Positions 898-13,644 of a DNA stretch of 25,204 nucleotides are shown piece after piece; positions within the stretch are counted from its first letter, which is position 1, and every line of letters begins with the position of its first letter. Where the stretch lies: positions 1 through 25,204 of the forward strand of contig JBGQGY010000041.1 in the NCBI GenBank assembly GCA_041497675.1. Direction: 5' to 3'. The translations under genes and the position numbers were made by a program. Below the pieces are notes generated by a model. It ran no database searches. It was not told where the DNA came from and saw only the letters and a list, made by a program, of their open reading frames with translations. This DNA is from a bacterium (GTDB lineage Bacteria; Sysuimicrobiota; Sysuimicrobiia; Sysuimicrobiales; Humicultoraceae).

Positions 898-1863
898 GTG
901 CAGAGTAGCGAGCGCAACAGGGCGGTCGGCCCGGAGGTCAGCGTCCGGGAGGTCCTGCCCGATGGCAGTCCCGACCGGGAGTTGCGTCTCCTCGACGAGA
1001 TGGCAAGGACGATTCACGAAGCCGCGCAGATACTCAACACGGCCATGGGCGGCGGTGTGCCGTTTGGCGAAGCCTGGGAACTGATCAGAGACCTGGAGCA
1101 CAAAGGTGATGCAATCGCGCGCGACCTCTTTGACGCGCTGATGGTGCCGCGCGGCACGCTGGACCGGCAGGCGCTGACGGCCCTCACTGGATATCTGGAC
1201 GACGTCGTCGACGGGATCGAAGCGGCCGCGGCGCGTCTGGCGATCTACCGGATCCGGCGCGTGCTGCCGGCCGCGCACGAGATGAGCGCGATCATCCTGG
1301 AGTCCGCCAAGGAACTGGTCACGGCTATCGATCAGGTGCGCCGCATGGAGGACGTGTTTCCCCACACGCGGAGCCTGCACCGGCTCGAAAACCGGGGCGA
1401 CGATGTGCTGCGCGCGGCCATGGAAGCCCTCTTCTCAGGGTCGACCACAGTCAAGGATATTATCAAGTGGAAAGACATCTGCGAGATGCTCGAGACGAGC
1501 ACCGACCGGTGTGAAGACGTGGCGAACGTGCTCGAGACGTTCGTCGTCCAGTCGGGAGGCGAAGACAAACTTACGGCGGGCCGCCTCGTCGTCGATGTCG
1601 GCCGGCACGAGGTCAAGGTGGCCGGCGCCGTCGTGCCCGTCTCCGCGAAGGAGTTTGGCCTCCTGCACCTGTTGATGCGTCACCAGGGCAAAGTGGTGCG
1701 GCGCGAGCGGCTGCTCCACGAGGTCTGGGGCGACGACTATTTTGGCGACGCCCGCACGCTCGACACCCACGTTGGCTGGCTGCGCAAGAAGGTCGAGGCG
1801 CGGGGCGGGGTTCGGATCGTGGCCGTTCGCGGCATCGGCTACCGGCTGGATCTTGCGGGCTAG
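898..1863 (+). CDS. DUF47/PhoU-like domain fused to a C-terminal OmpR/PhoB-type winged-helix DNA-binding domain (no receiver domain)
   Basis: N part LEHKGD...LDDVVDGIEAAAARLAIY...LENRGD...IKWKDICEMLETSTDRCEDVA (DUF47). C part from ~1570: SAKEFGLLHLLMRHQGKVVRRERLLHEVWG...RTLDTHVGWLRKKVE...IVAVRGIGYRL (Trans_reg_C). Start uncertain (GTG 889/898 or ATG 1000). Confidence 0.88.
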   Translation: MQSSERNRAVGPEVSVREVLPDGSPDRELRLLDEMARTIHEAAQILNTAMGGGVPFGEAWELIRDLEHKGDAIARDLFDALMVPRGTLDRQALTALTGYLDDVVDGIEAAAARLAIYRIRRVLPAAHEMSAIILESAKELVTAIDQVRRMEDVFPHTRSLHRLENRGDDVLRAAMEALFSGSTTVKDIIKWKDICEMLETSTDRCEDVANVLETFVVQSGGEDKLTAGRLVVDVGRHEVKVAGAVVPVSAKEFGLLHLLMRHQGKVVRRERLLHEVWGDDYFGDARTLDTHVGWLRKKVEARGGVRIVAVRGIGYRLDLAG

Positions 1864-1884
1864 AGCCCGCATCCCTCGAAAGAC

Positions 1885-1960
1885 TTCACATTCCTTTGAC
1901 GTAGGATCCACTCTCACTTGACGTGGGTTCACGGTTCCCTTCACGTCCTGCTGGTACGCT
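1885..1960 (+). promoter_or_regulatory. PHO-box-like direct repeat array plus extended -10 of the pst operon
   Basis: TTCACA 1885, TTGACG 1896, TCCACT 1907, TTGACG 1918, TTCACG 1928, TTCACG 1940 (spacings 11,11,11,10,12), then TG-G-TACGCT at 1952-1960. Confidence 0.8.
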
Positions 1961-2003
1961 CAAGGCGCACCAGAGCGAATCGCATGACAGGAGGGAACCA
2001 AAG

Positions 2004-3050
2004 TTGAGAGGACGCAGCGTCTTGGGGTTTGTGCTCGCGGCCGGCGGCGTGCTCACGCTGGCCCTTGCCGTGGCGGCGCAGTCCGTGAACCTGACCGGGG
2101 CCGGGGCGACGTTCCCGTTCCCCTTGTACTCCAAGTGGTCCCAGGTGTACGAAGCGGAGAAGGGCGTCAGAGTGAACTATCAGTCGATCGGGTCGGGCGG
2201 GGGCATCCGCCAGTTCATCTCGAAGACCGTCGACTTTGGGGCCAGCGACGGGCCGATGACCGATGAGCAGATCCAGCAGGCCGGCGGTCGCGTGCTGCAC
2301 ATCCCCATGGTCGCGGGCGCGGTCGTGCCAGTCTACAACGTGCCCGGCGTCGGTCCCGGCTTGAACTTCACATCCGACATCCTGGCCGACATCTTTCTGG
2401 GTAGGATCACGAAGTGGAATGACCCCCGCATCATGAAGGACAACGCCGCGACCAAACTACCGGGCGCCAGTATCGTCGTCGTCCACCGTGCAGATGGGTC
2501 CGGGACAACAGCCATTTGGGTCAACTATCTGAGCAAGGTCAGCGGTGAGTGGAAAACCAAGGTCGGCGAGGGGACATCGGTCGAATGGCCCACGGGGCTG
2601 GGGGGCCGCGGCAACGAGGGCGTCGCGGGGCTCGTAAAACAAACTCCGAACACGCTTGGGTATGTCGAGCTGGCGTACGCGCTGACCAACCAGATGACGT
2701 TTGGCAATGTCCGAAACAAGGCCGGGCAGTTCGTCAGGGCGTCGCTGTCGACGACGACCAAGGCCATGGAAGGCGCGCTCAAGGCGATTCCCGAGGACTA
2801 CCGGATCTTCTTTACCGATCCCGACGGGCAGGATGCCTACCCGGTCGCGGGGTTCACGTGGATCCTGATCTACGGCGATCAGCGAGACGCCGCGAAGGGG
2901 AAGGCGCTCGTCGAGTTTCTCTGGTGGGCGACGCACGAGGGCCAGAAATACGGGCCGACGCTGCTCTACGCGTCGTTACCCAAGGCCCTGGTGCAGCGCC
3001 TTGAGGGCACGTTGAAGACGGTGACCGCGCAAGGCAAGGCGATTCTCTAG
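2004..3050 (+). CDS. pstS: Phosphate ABC transporter substrate-binding protein
   Basis: GAGATFPFPLY, YQSIGSGGGI, DFGASD, HRADGSGTT, GRGNEGVA, GYVELAYA motifs. TTG start at 2004 after SD GGAGG; signal peptide without lipobox Cys. Confidence 0.97.
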   Translation: MRGRSVLGFVLAAGGVLTLALAVAAQSVNLTGAGATFPFPLYSKWSQVYEAEKGVRVNYQSIGSGGGIRQFISKTVDFGASDGPMTDEQIQQAGGRVLHIPMVAGAVVPVYNVPGVGPGLNFTSDILADIFLGRITKWNDPRIMKDNAATKLPGASIVVVHRADGSGTTAIWVNYLSKVSGEWKTKVGEGTSVEWPTGLGGRGNEGVAGLVKQTPNTLGYVELAYALTNQMTFGNVRNKAGQFVRASLSTTTKAMEGALKAIPEDYRIFFTDPDGQDAYPVAGFTWILIYGDQRDAAKGKALVEFLWWATHEGQKYGPTLLYASLPKALVQRLEGTLKTVTAQGKAIL

Positions 3051-3053
3051 ACG

Positions 3054-3989
3054 TTGAACCCGCGCACGACCGCCCACACCGGCGACCTCTTGTTCCAGCG
3101 TCTGCTGGCCGGGATGGCGGGGATGGTGCTGCTGATCACCGGCGCAATCACCATCTCGTTGACCGTCGCGGCCTGGCCGGCCATCGAGAGGTTTGGCCTG
3201 CGATTTTTGGTGACGTCAACCTGGAACCCGGTCTCGGGCCGATTCGGCGCCCTCCCGTTTGTCTACGGGACGTTGGTCTCATCGGGGATCGCCCTGATGC
3301 TGGCGGTGCCGCTGGGGCTTGGCGTCGCCATCTTTCTCTCGGAGTTGGCGCCGCGGTGGCTGCGGGTGCCGGTCGGCTTTCTTGTCGAACTGCTCGCGGC
3401 TATCCCAAGCGTCGTCTATGGTCTGTGGGGGATCTTCGTGCTCATCCCGTGGGTGCGCACGAGTCTCACACCACCCCTGCAGGCCGCGCTCGGGTTTCTG
3501 CCGCTCTTTCAGGGGCCGCCGCTGGGGTTGGGCATGCTGACCGCCGGGCTCATCCTGGCGATCATGGTCGTGCCGTTTATCGTAGCCGTCAGTACCGAGG
3601 TCATGCGCGCCGTCCCCCAAGCGCAGCGCGAAGCCGCGCTCTCGCTGGGCGCGACGCAGTGGGAGACGACCCGCACCGCCGTCATTCCCTACGCGCGGTC
3701 GGGGATCATGGGAGCGACCTTCCTCGCGTTGGCCCGGGCGTTGGGTGAGACGATGGCGGTGACCATGGTCATCGGGAACGTCCCGCAGATCAAGGCGTCG
3801 GTGCTCGCACCCGCGTATACGATCTCGGCCGTCATCGCCAACGAGTTCGCCGAGGCTACCGAAAACCTATATCTCGCCGCGCTGATCCTCGTCGGGCTCG
3901 TGCTGTTCGTCGTCACAATGGGGGTGAACGTCGTCGCGCGCCTCCTAGTATCGAGGGTCGCCGGGGGACCGGCGCTGATCAGGGAATGA
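3054..3989 (+). CDS. pstC: Phosphate ABC transporter permease PstC
   Basis: WNP..GRFGALPFVYGTL, ELLAAIPSVVYGLWG, REAALSLGAT, RALGETMAVTMVIGN. Confidence 0.97.
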   Translation: MNPRTTAHTGDLLFQRLLAGMAGMVLLITGAITISLTVAAWPAIERFGLRFLVTSTWNPVSGRFGALPFVYGTLVSSGIALMLAVPLGLGVAIFLSELAPRWLRVPVGFLVELLAAIPSVVYGLWGIFVLIPWVRTSLTPPLQAALGFLPLFQGPPLGLGMLTAGLILAIMVVPFIVAVSTEVMRAVPQAQREAALSLGATQWETTRTAVIPYARSGIMGATFLALARALGETMAVTMVIGNVPQIKASVLAPAYTISAVIANEFAEATENLYLAALILVGLVLFVVTMGVNVVARLLVSRVAGGPALIRE

Positions 3990-4840
3990 TCGCTGCGGGG
4001 CCGGGGTACCGCCGGCGCAAGGTCATCAACGCGATCATGAGCGCCGCGACCGCGCTCTGCACCATCGCCGTGCTGGTGCCACTGTTTGTGATCCTGCTCT
4101 TTCTCATCCGTCAGGGCGCCGGATCGATCAACCGGGAGTTCTTCACGCACCTCCCCGGCGCGGCGGGTGAGCCGGGCGGCGGCATGGCGAACGCCATCGT
4201 CGGGTCGCTGGTCCTGATCGGGCTCGCGGGTGTGATCGGCGTGCCGGTCGGTGTGCTGGGCGGCGTGTTCCTGTCCGAATACCCGGGCAGCAAGTTCGGA
4301 CACGTCGTGCGGTTGATGGCCGACGTCATGAACGGCATGCCCAGCATCGTGATGGGGCTCTTTGCCTACACGGTCATCGTCTTGCCGATGCGGCACTTCA
4401 GCGCGCTCGCCGGTGGCGTGGCGCTGGGCGTCATGCTCATCCCCACGGTGATGCGGACGACAGAGGAGATCGTGCGGCTCGTTCCCCAGAGCATCCGGGA
4501 GGCGTCGCTCGCGCTCGGGATCCCCCAATGGAAGACGATGGTGCGGATCGTGCTGCCGACCGCGGCCGGCGGGATCGTGACGGGGATCATGGTCGGTTTG
4601 GCGCGTATCGCCGGTGAGACCGCCCCGCTGTTGTTTACCGCGTTTGGCAATCGCTTTTGGAATTGGAACCTTCTCCAGCCCATCGCGGCGCTGCCTCTCC
4701 AGGTGTTCTCGTACGCCATCGCCCCATTCGATGACTGGCACCGCCAGGCGTGGGCCGGGGCGTTGGTCCTCGTCGCCATGATCCTGGTGATCAACGTGAC
4801 GGCCCGGTCCTTCGCGGCCCGGCAGGTGAACCTCCGATGA
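3986..4840 (+). CDS. pstA: Phosphate ABC transporter permease PstA
   Basis: [46 protein letters not shown] overlap with pstC. Confidence 0.97.
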
Positions 4841-5652
4841 GCGCTCTCGAGACGAACATCATGCCGAATCACGCCGCGGCGCCCCAGCGCCCGACGGTCG
4901 GCGGCATCGATACGCGCGACGTCCATGCGTGGTTTGACCGGCACCACGTGCTGCATGGGATTACCCTGGCGATCGCGCCCCGGCAGGTCACCGCGATCAT
5001 CGGGCCGTCGGGGTGCGGTAAATCCACGTTTCTGCGGTGTCTGAACCGCATGCACGAGCTCGTCCCCGGCGGCCGGGTCGGCGGCCAGATCCTGCTCGAC
5101 GGCGGCGACATCTATGCGCCGGGCGTCGACCCGGTGCTCGTCCGCCGTCGCGTCGGCATGGTGTTCCAGAAGCCCAACCCGTTTCCGACGATGAGCATCT
5201 ACGACAACGTGGTGGCCGGACTCCGACTCGGCGGCGATCACGGCGGGGCGACGCTCGACGAGACCGTCGAGCGGAGCCTGCGGGCCGCGGCCCTGTGGGA
5301 TGAGGTGAAGGACCGTCTTGAAAAACCGGGGACCAGTCTCTCGGGTGGCCAGCAGCAGCGGCTGTGCATCGCGCGCGCGCTCGCCGTGTCTCCCAAGGTG
5401 CTGTTGATGGACGAGCCGTGCTCGGCGCTCGACCCGGCGGCGACCCTGCGGATCGAGGAGCTGGCCCGCCAGCTGGCCGGGGACATCACCATCGTGATCG
5501 TGACGCACAACATGCAGCAGGCCGCCCGAGTCTCCGATGTGACCGGCTTCTTCCTGAACGGCGAACTCATCGAATTGGGGGTGACGGACCAGATCTTCAC
5601 CCGGCCGAAGGACAAGCGCACCGAGGACTATATCACCGGACGGTTCGGGTAG
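4837..5652 (+). CDS. pstB: Phosphate ABC transporter ATP-binding protein
   Basis: Walker [49 protein letters not shown]-terminal [14 protein letters not shown] overlap with pstA. Confidence 0.97.
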
Positions 5653-5716: not shown

Positions 5717-6373
5717 GTGACGCGCGACATGTTCGTCAAGGAAATGGAGGCGCTGCAGGCCGACGTCGTCCGGATGGCGTCGATGGCCGGCGACGCCATC
5801 CATGCGGCCGTTGAAGCGCTGAGGGACCGGGATGTAGCCCGCGCGGAGCGCGTCATTGCCGACGATGACCGGATCGACACCCTGCACCTCGATCTCGAGG
5901 CGCGGTGCATGCGGCTGCTGGCCCGACAGCAACCCATGGCGTCGGACCTACGCGCCATCGCAGCGGTCTTTACCATCACCCTCGATCTGGAGCGGCTGGC
6001 CGATCACGCTGAGGGGATCTCGAAGGCCGTCAAGCGTCTTGGGGACCAACCCCTGCTGAAACCGCTGATCGACATCCCGCGGATGGAAGCGTTGGTGCAG
6101 CAGATGCTCCGCGACGTCATGCACGCCTTCCTGCGCCGTGACGTCGCCCTCGCGGAGGCGACGGCGCTCAAGGACGACGAAGTCGATGCCCTGCGCAGTC
6201 AGGTGTTCCGCGAGTTGCTCACCTACATGATGAGCGATCCCGGCACGGTGTCGCGGGCGCTCGAACTGCTACTCGTGGCGCAACACCTCGAACGCGCGGC
6301 CGATCACATCACCAACATCGGCGAACGGGTCATCTATGCCGTCACGGGCGAACTCCGCGAACTGAACGTCTAG
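5717..6373 (+). CDS. phoU: Phosphate signalling complex protein PhoU
   Basis: DDRID, ARQQPMASDLR, DLERLADHA, DDEVD, LERAADHITNIGERVIYAVTG; follows pstB. Confidence 0.96.
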   Translation: MTRDMFVKEMEALQADVVRMASMAGDAIHAAVEALRDRDVARAERVIADDDRIDTLHLDLEARCMRLLARQQPMASDLRAIAAVFTITLDLERLADHAEGISKAVKRLGDQPLLKPLIDIPRMEALVQQMLRDVMHAFLRRDVALAEATALKDDEVDALRSQVFRELLTYMMSDPGTVSRALELLLVAQHLERAADHITNIGERVIYAVTGELRELNV

Positions 6374-6398
6374 CCAGATTCGACCCCCGGGGGCAGCC

Positions 6399-6794
6399 GT
6401 GCGACGCGTCCTCTTCGTCTGACACGCCAACACCGCCCGCTCACCGATGGCCGAGGCGCTGTTCAACGCCGCGGCGCCGGAGGGCTGGCGGGCCGGATCC
6501 GCGGGCACGGATCCCAGTGGTACCGTCCGTAACGACGCCGTCGCCGCGATGCGGGAGATCGGTCTCGATATCAGCGCGCACGTCCCGCGGTCGCTGGGCG
6601 CGGCGCTCGGACCCGACGTCGAACTGCTCGTGGGGCTCTGCGCGGAAGAGGGCTGCCCCGTCGCACCCGGCATCCGCAGCCTGCACTGGCCGGTTCCCAA
6701 TCCCGCGGGTGGGGGGATCGATCGCTACCGCGAGGCGCGCGATCTGCTGCGACGGTTGATACGGGATTTGGTGGGCGATCTCCAAGTGAGATGA
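6399..6794 (+). CDS. arsC: Thioredoxin-type arsenate reductase (LMW-PTP fold) with in-frame TGA at the catalytic Cys position; candidate selenoprotein (alternative: nonsense pseudogene)
   Basis: GTG 6399 gives MRRVLFV-TGA(6420-6422)-HANTARSPMAEA, in frame with the track ORF 6447..6794, which has SAGT, AMREIGLDIS, LCAEEGCP, HWPVPNP. Confidence 0.75.
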
Positions 6795-6830: not shown

Positions 6831-7463
6831 ATGACGACTGGCGGCAAGGCGAAGGCGCGGGACGCGAAGCAGCACCGTAGAGACGCCACGCGCGAAGAAC
6901 GGCTCAAAGGACGACAAGAGGCGGAGACCCGCCGGCACAAGCGCGAGCGCACTATCTACGCGGCCGTCGCCGTGGTGGTCGTGGCCATTATTGGCCTGTT
7001 GGGGTGGTCCGCATTCAGGCCCAAACCCGCTCTGCCGGGCGTGCAGTATCCCGATCAGGGGACTGAGCACATCCCGCGAGGCAAGCCCCATCCCGCGTAC
7101 AACTCGAACCCGCCGACCTCGGGATGGCACTACGCGGAGACCGTGGCCCCCGGAGCCTACAACAACGACGTGGCCGACGAGATCCTTATCCACAACCTCG
7201 AGCACGGGTGTATTTGGGTGTCGTACAAGGATTCCAAGGACGCCGATCTGGTCGCGAAGCTGGAGGGGTTCGCGGCGCAGTATCCGACGTCGGTGGTGCT
7301 GACGGTGCGATCGAAGAACGACAGCGCCATTGCCGTGGCCGCCTGGCGGCGCCTGCTGAAACTGGAGAAGTACGACGAAGGTCGGATCGTCCAGTTTCTT
7401 AAGATGTTCCGCAACAAGGGACCCGAGTCGCTCAACTGCGTCGGGGGGATGCCGCCGAAGTAG
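6831..7463 (+). CDS. DUF3105 domain membrane-anchored protein
   Basis: Basic N-terminus, one TM helix, then YNSNPPTSGWHY and HNLEHG motifs, IAVAAW. Confidence 0.85.
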   Translation: MTTGGKAKARDAKQHRRDATREERLKGRQEAETRRHKRERTIYAAVAVVVVAIIGLLGWSAFRPKPALPGVQYPDQGTEHIPRGKPHPAYNSNPPTSGWHYAETVAPGAYNNDVADEILIHNLEHGCIWVSYKDSKDADLVAKLEGFAAQYPTSVVLTVRSKNDSAIAVAAWRRLLKLEKYDEGRIVQFLKMFRNKGPESLNCVGGMPPK

Positions 7464-13174: not shown

Positions 13175-13644
13175 CGTGGCTCCTCGTCCTTCTGTGCGTG
13201 TGTTCCCACGGCTTCTGCGTGGATCTTCACCGCCTGAAGAGTCTTGCGCGCCGTGTAGTTGATGAAGATCGGGCCGACAAGCAGATTTCCAACAAGCCGG
13301 CCTATCAGCGGCCAGCGCATCACCAGGTCGTGAACCAGCTCGACGGTGACGCCGTTGGCGTCGGCGGCGAAGCGCCACTCAACGGCCATGCCCCTCGTGA
13401 TCCCGCCGATATGGCGGAACGTGAGGCGCCGCCCATCACTGCGCGCCTCTCGCACCGCTGTCCACCGCGCGGGCCATCCACGGATCCAACCACCCATCTC
13501 GAACGTAAGTGTTCGCGGTGTCTCTTCAATAACGCGGAACCACCGGTACTCCCGCCGCAGTCGGGACCAATTCGCGACATCCTTGGCCAACTCGAAGACC
13601 ACCTCCAACGGAGCGGCGATCCAGATGCGATGCTCAAGATGCAT
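13171..13644 (-). CDS. SRPBCC / polyketide cyclase-aromatase family protein
   Basis: IWIAAPLEVVFELAKDVANW...RLTFRHIGGITRGMAVEWRF pattern, 157 aa. Confidence 0.8.
   Translation of the reverse strand: MHLEHRIWIAAPLEVVFELAKDVANWSRLRREYRWFRVIEETPRTLTFEMGGWIRGWPARWTAVREARSDGRRLTFRHIGGITRGMAVEWRFAADANGVTVELVHDLVMRWPLIGRLVGNLLVGPIFINYTARKTLQAVKIHAEAVGTHAQKDEEPR

Follow-up and report, generated by a model that had tools for sequence, protein, structure and literature searches.

Selenoproteins annotated as arsenate reductase have been found previously through the pairing of selenocysteine (Sec) with Cys. According to the accessible text of PMC1088965 this family is COG1393 (TIGR00014) with the motif UxxS, and the available parts of PMC9312934 and PMC13188914 list it together with an "arsenate reductase-like protein" (COG1393/NF041106, motif UxxC). 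The published proteins have the thioredoxin fold of ArsC/Spx, which is unrelated to that of the protein-tyrosine phosphatases of low molecular weight (LMW-PTP). Here we describe a gene of the latter fold, with the motif U-X5-R-S, which occupies positions 6399-6794 of the + strand in a 25,204-nt stretch of DNA (hereafter the window; contig JBGQGY010000041.1 of assembly GCA_041497675.1) from a bacterium of the order Sysuimicrobiales, family Humicultoraceae. The gene is best read as a real and conserved selenocysteine form of the phosphatase-fold ArsC family. Its product is in all likelihood a 131-residue enzyme of the arsenate-reductase branch of the LMW-PTP fold, in which the Sec of the P-loop would be inserted at UGA 6420-6422 by SelA, SelB, SelD and tRNA-Sec.

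The closest characterised relatives are the thioredoxin-coupled LMW-PTP-fold arsenate reductases of Staphylococcus aureus pI258 (1LJL/1LJU/1JF8) and Bacillus subtilis (1JL3). They share with the window protein the fold (Foldseek template-modelling (TM) scores of 0.82-0.86), an X5-R-S P-loop with Asn at the same place, two downstream Cys residues and a length of about 130 residues, at 25-31% sequence identity. They differ in having a Cys nucleophile where the window gene has TGA (Sec), and pI258-type ArsC differs further in the spacing of the two Cys (C-x6-C there, C-x4-C here), in having Asp105 where the window protein has Asn, and in its genetic context, since the window gene lies beside pst/phoU and not beside arsR or arsB/acr3. 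An Archaeoglobus fulgidus protein solved by structural genomics (1Y1L) is closer still (TM 0.85/0.89, 39% identity, root-mean-square deviation 1.7), with an ALFNA helix and the C-E-E-x-x-C (C-x4-C) spacing in common; it is an archaeal and functionally uncharacterised entry, and its nucleophile is a Cys.

The selenoprotein family described here is absent from the catalogues that could be searched. TIGR00014 and NF041106 are not among the five NCBIfam matches (E ≤ 0.01) of the read-through protein. The accessible text of the 2026 review PMC13188914 makes no mention of phosphatase, LMW, tyrosine or PF01451, and its supplements might list the family; that of the deep-Sep paper (PMC12013277) makes no mention of arsenate, phosphatase or ArsC. 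A full-text literature search returned, within the text it covered, no paper on a Sec-containing ArsC with the LMW-PTP fold; PMC12013261 (Haft and Tolstoy 2025) may bear on the point. If the reading is correct this would be the first Sec in the P-loop of phosphatase-fold enzymes, with a bearing on how arsenate and phosphate esters are attacked (Se-As adduct, selenenylsulfide relay).

The gene and its in-frame TGA

Direct reading of the frame from the start codon GTG (6399-6401) gives V-R-R-V-L-F-V-(TGA)-H-A-N-T-A-R-S-P-M-A-E. The in-frame TGA (6420-6422), the putative Sec codon for residue 8, follows seven codons behind the start and stands at the nucleophile position of the P-loop U-H-A-N-T-A-R-S (6420-6443), which a profile aligns to C10-N13-R16-S17 of pI258 ArsC. 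The gene comprises 131 codons and its terminator is itself TGA (6792-6794). On the 5' side the nearest in-frame stop is TAG 6372-6374, at the end of phoU. Purine tetramers resembling a Shine-Dalgarno sequence, loosely defined, precede the start in 21 of 27 sequences, a count made without a control set. The resolving Cys pair C81-A-E-E-G-C86 (C-x4-C) is encoded at 6639-6656 (Cys codons 6639-6641 and 6654-6656), and Asn101 (6699-6701) takes the place of Asp105 of pI258 ArsC in the alignment.

The original prediction of a hidden selenoprotein at this place was thus partly confirmed. It had the frame running from GTG 6399 with TGA 6420-6422 at the nucleophile of the C-x5-R motif, an intact downstream Cys pair in CAEEGCP, and an ORF track (open reading frame track) that begins at 6447, and all of these are found as it described them, ATG 6447 being the gene start in the table-11 ORF list. 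The hairpin that it drew at 6429-6463 could not be confirmed as meaningful and is discussed below with the RNA structure.

The prediction that gene callers truncate a Sec-ArsC is also supported: the public matches lack the N-terminal P-loop region, the Sec machinery is present and the TGA is fixed among relatives. When 5.8 billion proteins were searched (E ≤ 1e-20), 42 of the 43 matches (58-100% identity) covered only 60-92% of the query. Five public sequences were inspected, of which four start at Met17 and one directly behind the TGA. Their sources name the matches "arsenate reductase", "protein-tyrosine-phosphatase" or hypothetical. The error in annotation is systematic: those members of the family located in public databases are devoid of the catalytic loop.

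Conservation of the TGA among relatives

As a query against 61 genomes from the window's order, its own genome among them, the read-through protein gave matches at E ≤ 6e-42 (55-80% identity) at 27 places in 26 genomes, with exactly one TGA in each. In all 26 orthologous loci that were fetched, from 26 genomes of two families of the one order, the TGA falls at the same aligned codon (25/25 on leaving out one locus, L036, from the unpublished genome G019). The 27th place (contig C33 of genome G023, with one TGA by the search) and partial TGA matches in G005 and G006 lie outside this inspected set. An ATG or GTG stands exactly seven codons 5' of the TGA in 26/26 orthologues, and four more distant homologues from the same order (L051-L054, 38-47% identity) have TGC or TGT at the codon in question. 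That the TGA falls at the nucleophile codon is more than coincidence. The alternation of TGA with Cys codons for which the original prediction had proposed looking is therefore present, and its remaining doubt, that a TGC or TGT had mutated to a nonsense codon, is effectively excluded: the TGA is fixed in 26/26 and the peptide upstream is conserved.

The coding character of the segment ahead of the TGA is seen in the orthologue alignment, where Val4 is encoded by GTC (17), GTG (7) or GTT (2), Leu5 by CTG (19), CTC (4), CTA (1) or CTT (1) and Phe6 by TTC (23) or TTT (4). The four codons before the TGA keep their residues while their third bases drift, which is the signature of a translated peptide. 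On the other side of the TGA the N, A, R and S of the P-loop are invariant in 24 aligned orthologues, as are both C81 and C86, and Met17, the start chosen by the gene callers, is Ile in 3/27 and Val in 1/27. The gene thus shows what is expected of a bacterial selenoprotein gene, namely a conserved TGA aligned to the Cys of homologues with coding conservation on both sides. Bases 6420-6422 are also without difference in contigs from four other sediment or hot-spring sequencing runs, one of which (X4) is possibly the source of the window DNA itself; the contigs covering these bases include divergent ones with 9-10 other differences and an unchanged TGA.

Selenocysteine machinery

The original prediction had called for a search of the genome for selA, selB, selD and tRNA-Sec, and all four are present in the 3.97-Mb assembly to which the window belongs (98.6% complete). 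The tRNA-Sec gene (Rfam 62.8 bits; called SeC with anticodon tca by ARAGORN) adjoins selA (536.6 bits) and selB (361.5 bits), while selD (393.6 bits) carries one in-frame TGA. Across the order selD was detected in 56/61 genomes and selA in 51/61, the unpublished genomes G010 and G019 being counted in these tallies; each of the 58 selD places listed carries a TGA. At least one of selD and selA occurs in each of the 26 genomes that possess the TGA gene. Both occur in 20, and the other six are metagenome-assembled genomes (MAGs) of 69-93% completeness. From this sequence evidence it is very probable that TGA 6420-6422 is decoded as Sec, which the organism's own SelA, SelB, SelD and tRNA-Sec would carry out.

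The selD gene (contig C39, 15011-15934, locus L020; also L135-L163) is itself a selenoprotein gene with the motif C-A-G-U-A-S-K-L in all 58 places, and its selenocysteine insertion sequence (SECIS) is conserved, with a stem GGCGYA/UGCGCC and a loop (G/C)GU(C/G)(C/U) 32 nt past the UGA. A screen based on periodicity of G+C at third codon positions (GC3) gave three further probable selenoprotein genes in the assembly (contig C15, TGA at 2068, -; C19, TGA at 13637, -; C98, TGA at 5170, -). They are thioredoxin- or glutaredoxin-like with the motifs W-U-G-C, W-U-P-Y-C and D-U-P-T-C, and have hairpins of 6-7 bp with the 5-nt loops GGUCU, CGUGG and CGUGU at 20-21 nt past the UGA; these candidates come from this one genome.

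Protein fold and proposed mechanism

The read-through product has the LMW-PTP (phosphotyrosine phosphatase I) fold by three measures. Pfam LMWPc (PF01451) matches residues 4-124 with 70.9 bits (cut-off 23.2), the AF2 model has a pLDDT of 93.9, and the top 13 Foldseek matches of the model are all ArsC structures. The model superposes best on 1Y1L, followed by the pI258, Corynebacterium glutamicum, B. subtilis and D. indicus ArsC structures. A profile built from 24 orthologues finds as its best PDB matches pI258 ArsC (1LJU, 104.2 bits) and A. fulgidus 1Y1L (103.7 bits), as against 55.7 bits for YwlE and 29.8 bits for Wzb among the protein phosphatases. In the profile alignment U8, N11, R14 and S15 fall on C10, N13, R16 and S17 of pI258 ArsC, and C81 and C86 on C82 and C89. 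Both resolving Cys of a thioredoxin-type ArsC are accordingly in place, with C-x4-C spacing; the X5-R-S loop aligns as well, and the codon for its Cys nucleophile is TGA, read here as Sec, which would be the functional analogue of that Cys.

By analogy with the pI258 and B. subtilis enzymes, Sec8 would attack an oxyanion, most likely arsenate. Cys81 would then resolve the adduct as a selenenylsulfide with release of arsenite, and Cys86 would form a Cys81-Cys86 disulfide to be reduced by thioredoxin. On balance, the same analogy makes arsenate the probable substrate. Asn101 aligns to Asp105 of pI258 ArsC, which we take to be the general acid of that enzyme; a Sec nucleophile may relax the need for a general acid, or the Asn may go with a different substrate. 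The equivalogs of the LMW phosphatases are missed by a wide interval (Wzb PRK10126, 21 bits against a cut-off of 243; PRK11391, 19.8 against 247), as is that of the glutaredoxin-type reductases (TIGR02689, 41.7 against 157.6).

RNA structure behind the TGA

A conserved RNA structure of two hairpins lies inside the coding sequence behind the TGA (6435-6513) and probably directs the recoding. Columns of the alignments A3 and A4 are numbered so that column n is window position 6398+n; A4 holds 50 sequences, 26 of them genome-derived and 24 distinct metagenome rows picked with a pattern that fixes TTCGTCTGA, AAC and GCCCGC. Hairpin 1 (6435-6493) is long and imperfect, starts 12 nt past the UGA, and has the base helix GCCCGCU/GGCGGGC and an apex around CUGUUCAAC. 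Hairpin 2 (6496-6513), the best candidate for a SECIS core, has a stem of 6 bp, extended to 7 bp in the window (6495-6514), and the loop CGGGCA. Together they pair 89.2% of cells compared with 33-48% for slid partners, and none of 500 shuffles reaches 89.2%. The region is also more stable than its synonymous recodings (mean z -2.04; 24/26 sequences negative and 15/26 below -1.64), and window positions 6435-6515 folded alone give exactly both hairpins at -45.5 kcal/mol.

Hairpin 2 (columns 98-103 with 110-115, loop CGGGNA) pairs in 156/156 cells of the 26 genome-derived sequences and in 300/300 cells of the 50. Pair 99-114, between the third positions of codons 33 and 38, occurs in all Watson-Crick forms (CG 30, GC 12, AU 5, UA 1) and as GU in 2, with at least four double changes by our own reading of the tree; pair 102-111, made of two four-fold silent sites, is CG in 49 sequences and UA in one, where TCT goes with ACA (L181). 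Alone the hairpin folds at -11.7 kcal/mol (z -2.3). The silent sites of Ser34 (TCC), Ala35 (GCG) and Thr37 (ACG) are invariant in 27/27, TCC being only 17% of Ser codons genome-wide, and the choice of codons for this S-A-G-T is free in 31 high-GC Cys homologues. The stem-loop junction contains a palindrome, CCGCGG (window 6500-6505), which is invariant in 48/50 sequences of A4; the covariation in hairpin 2 argues for an RNA hairpin over a DNA site at this palindrome. Only two of the 50 sequences depart from the hairpin 2 pattern, L187 (436-567) with C for G at loop position 2 (GCC for Ala35), and L181 (110-241), where pair 102-111 is the compensated U-A instead of C-G.

The base helix of hairpin 1 (columns 37-95) is 93.1% paired in the 50 sequences. 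In one orthologue (L046) column 39 has gone silently from C to G, and column 93 compensates with a change from G to C that is silent too; pair 45-87, which joins two silent sites, is CG in 17, GC in 16, UG in 4, GU in 2, UA in 1 and unpaired in 10. The apical part refolds with changed stem sequences in nearly all sequences. A U43-G89 pair is present in 49/50, and such G-U pairs favour the sense RNA strand.

The shorter hairpin of the original prediction (6429-6463) can indeed be drawn, at -11.4 kcal/mol; as a SECIS it is disfavoured, since 26 of 200 shuffles fold equally well or better, only 76.6% of its cells pair in the 26 orthologues, a share matched by 342 of 500 column shuffles, and covariation is absent. 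The 64 nt past the UGA (6417-6480) fold more weakly than shuffles (z +1.45). RNAalifold on the first 96 columns was likewise weak (-5.1 kcal/mol), the signal appearing only with the longer alignment that reaches 111 nt past the TGA. Two other candidates were rejected. A short hairpin CCGC/GCGG with a 9-nt loop (columns 39-55) is present in only 17/26 sequences and broken in the window, and a pseudoknot between the hairpin 2 loop and GCCCGC (columns 37-42) was dropped because the column 39 change of L046 is compensated at column 93 and not at 106.

The bacterial SECIS (bSECIS) model, as given in the Fig. 2 legend of PMC13188914 in the text accessible, allows loops of 3-9 nt on stems of 4-16 bp and a minimum free energy of at most -7.5 kcal/mol, with a G in the first two loop positions (usually N-G-[G|U]-N-N) and 16-37 nt between the UGA and the apical loop. 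The available part of PMC8659212 places the E. coli SECIS hairpin at 11 nt from the UGA, and BSepDB reports 12.6% of its entries to be without a canonical SECIS. Hairpin 2 agrees with the core rules on loop, stem, G and energy, having a 6-nt loop, a stem of 6-7 bp, a G at loop position 2 followed by another G, and -11.7 kcal/mol. The 12-nt distance at which hairpin 1 starts is near the E. coli spacing. Hairpin 2 departs from a canonical bSECIS in that its loop is 79 nt past the UGA and a 59-nt hairpin is interposed between them.

Hairpin 2 could quite possibly be the SelB site. We infer that hairpin 1 folds; the stretch separating the UGA from the hairpin 2 loop would then shorten from 79 nt to 12 + 2 + 6 = 20 nt. 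With a UGA in the A site, the mRNA entrance of the ribosome is about 12 nt past it, so that a folded hairpin 1 would sit at the entrance while the linear 79 nt is reduced to some 20 nt. Su et al. are said to have reported in 2005 that a distal SECIS engineered in E. coli works when base-pairing brings it near the UGA. Alternatively the apex of hairpin 1 might be the SelB site, its loop at 36-37 nt past the UGA fitting the distance rule. In a search across the whole assembly the hairpin 2 motif gave 19 matches, and only the one in the arsC-like gene follows an in-frame TGA of a recognisable gene. The element breaks the spacing rule of SECIS predictors, which could explain why such genes are missed, and offers a natural test case of how far from the UGA a bacterial SECIS can sit.

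Gene neighbourhood

Upstream of the gene in the window are pstA, pstB and phoU, and a DUF3105 gene lies downstream. The phoU gene (5717-6373, +; PhoU domain E 1.4e-43) ends 25 nt before the start codon, and this gap contains no promoter-like or terminator-like site. Flanks of 1.5 kb (3 kb for L056) were scanned at 26 Sec loci, L036 being left out; as no background frequency was computed, the counts stand by themselves. Genes for PhoU, DUF47/PhoU_div, PHO4 (Pit), PstB or PstS occur in 19/26 flanks, with one of them (L048) barely above the cut-off, and none of the phosphate-transport or regulation genes is found in the flanks of the other 7/26. In 7/26 loci phoU is directly upstream on the same strand at a distance of 17-105 nt.

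Arsenate enters cells via phosphate transporters, which gives a plausible rationale for co-expressing a reductase with them. The conserved vicinity of Pst, PhoU and Pit genes suggests that the enzyme handles arsenate entering through phosphate transporters, and with it, for an uncultivated lineage of sediments, a link between the detoxification of arsenate and the uptake of phosphate. A role within phosphate metabolism itself would also be compatible with this context. A still more specific combination is only tentatively proposed and taken as a whole is doubtful: a bipartite SECIS, in which hairpin 2 at 79 nt from the UGA would be brought into range by the 59-nt hairpin, might serve the first Sec C-X5-R P-loop selenoenzyme, a phosphate-regulon-linked arsenate reductase with a selenenylsulfide relay and no general-acid Asp.

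Other neighbours were recorded as follows. An inorganic pyrophosphatase gene is directly 3' of the Sec gene in four loci, abutting it in L027 and L030 and overlapping it by 21 nt in L034 and L038; this neighbour is another link to phosphate metabolism. In L029 (2583-3386, -) and L038 (2633-3382, -) a DUF47/PhoU_div domain fused to a Trans_reg_C DNA-binding domain is encoded beside the Sec gene. The DUF3105 protein of the window (6831-7463; E 2e-26) has an N-terminal basic and hydrophobic segment, and is also the neighbour in L026, from the same genus. Elsewhere in the window's genome a stretch of contig C90 (7000-15500, locus L164) encodes, at 1710-4413 of that locus, a regulator of the ArsR type, an SBF transporter resembling Acr3 and an LMW-PTP ArsC of the Cys type, and multihaem cytochrome and cytochrome b genes adjoin this canonical arsenic-resistance cluster.

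Alternative explanations

A number of observations weigh against a Sec-decoded arsenate reductase. The relatives are kin, so that the orthologue counts are not independent events, and since the 24 metagenome rows were picked by the TGA/GCCCGC pattern they add nothing for the TGA or for columns 16-24, 31-33 and 37-42. No canonical SECIS was found behind the UGA of the gene: the loop of hairpin 2 starts 79 nt past it compared with the 16-37 nt of the spacing rule, and Rfam on 6350-6560 (E ≤ 10) returned four irrelevant weak matches and no SECIS family. Hairpin 1 is recovered in only 8/26 single-sequence minimum-free-energy folds and hairpin 2 fully in 14/26, and the apical loop of hairpin 1 has no conserved G, column 63 (a silent site) being G in 16/26. 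A canonical layout, with stems of 6-7 bp and NGUNN 5-nt loops 20-32 nt past the UGA, is seen in selD and in the genome's three other probable selenoprotein genes, those that are thioredoxin- or glutaredoxin-like. On the protein side the NCBIfam equivalog cut-offs for ArsC are missed (TIGR02691, 58.5 vs 174.3; PRK13530, 61.1 vs 215), and the residue equivalent to Asp105 is Asn in the window and, among the 27 orthologues, N in 15, D in 10, S in 1 and G in 1. Lastly the gene is not in an ars operon, and the arsR-acr3-arsC(Cys) cluster lies elsewhere, on contig C90.

Several of these points are shared with the idea that the gene does encode a selenoprotein but one with another substrate, either a phosphatase or phosphotransfer enzyme working through a Se-P intermediate or a reductase of a different oxyanion. 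We regard this as unlikely, though less so than the other alternatives. It would account for the pst/phoU/pit genes at 19/26 loci and the pyrophosphatase gene directly downstream in four, for the separate ars cluster with a Cys-ArsC of its own, for the scores under the ArsC equivalog cut-offs and for the replacement of the general-acid Asp by Asn in 15/27, and the C-x4-C spacing is common to the functionally uncharacterised 1Y1L. Against it, both resolving Cys are invariant, and a plain hydrolytic phosphatase has no need of them; arsenate reductases make up all of the best matches by sequence and by structure (YwlE 55.7 and Wzb 29.8 vs 104 bits). To our knowledge Sec is found almost only in redox catalysis, which also counts against this alternative.

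The remaining alternatives deny the insertion of Sec. A UGA read by a standard tRNA (a near-cognate one for Trp, Cys or Arg) or under a reassigned code would fit an RNA element that is atypical for a SECIS; it is nevertheless very improbable, because TGA is also the terminator of the gene in the window and in all 26 orthologous loci, which shows that the code is not reassigned, while the genome has the complete Sec machinery, a TGA is in use at each of the 58 selD places, and the alignment of TGA to a catalytic Cys is a classic Sec/Cys pair. Slightly more remote is plain termination, giving a 7-codon upstream ORF followed by a P-loop-less protein of 115 residues from ATG 6447. The public records could be so understood, 42 of 43 matches covering only 60-92% of the query and the five inspected starting at Met17 or just behind the TGA, and the want of a canonical SECIS at the usual distance points the same way. 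Yet the N-x-A-R-S between the TGA and Met17 is invariant, in frame and makes up the fold's P-loop, the upstream VLFV strand keeps its residues while its codons change silently, 3/27 orthologues have no start codon in the place of Met17, and in the AF2 model a product from Met17 would be without the catalytic loop and the first beta-strand. A pseudogene or assembly error, by a recent nonsense change, has a negligible chance of being correct. TGC or TGT is one base away from TGA, but the TGA occurs in 26/26 orthologous loci over about 15 genera, the remaining frame is intact in all 26, contigs of four other runs have the same bases, and the RNA structure behind the TGA is conserved.

Wider distribution and phylogeny

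In a wider scan of one genome per species, 80 loci were returned, six of which could not be parsed by motif. TGA was found in two (L055 and L056), both from records titled "Armatimonadota bacterium" MAG, L055 duplicating L047 over the gene. The nucleophile is Cys in 75 ORFs of 72/80 loci (TGC 55, TGT 20; 33-48% identity). A quick IQ-TREE phylogeny was made from 104 rows and 140 columns. Its rows exclude L036 as unpublished, L055 as a duplicate and L037 for containing X, besides the six unparsed loci. The 25 Sec rows make up one side of a branch (SH-aLRT 91), so that a single change between Cys and Sec is enough. Nearest to them are five Cys forms (SH-aLRT 94), L052-L054 from the same order and two from records with archaeal MAG titles (L060 and L072), which group beside the Sec clade; many forks in this tree are unresolved.

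One public protein, P0044 (152 aa), is a Cys-form homologue with 42% identity that shares MAEALFNAAAPEGW with the window protein and may stand closer to the Sec clade than do the Cys forms in the tree. It has a C-x5-C pair and a composition rich in Lys and Glu.

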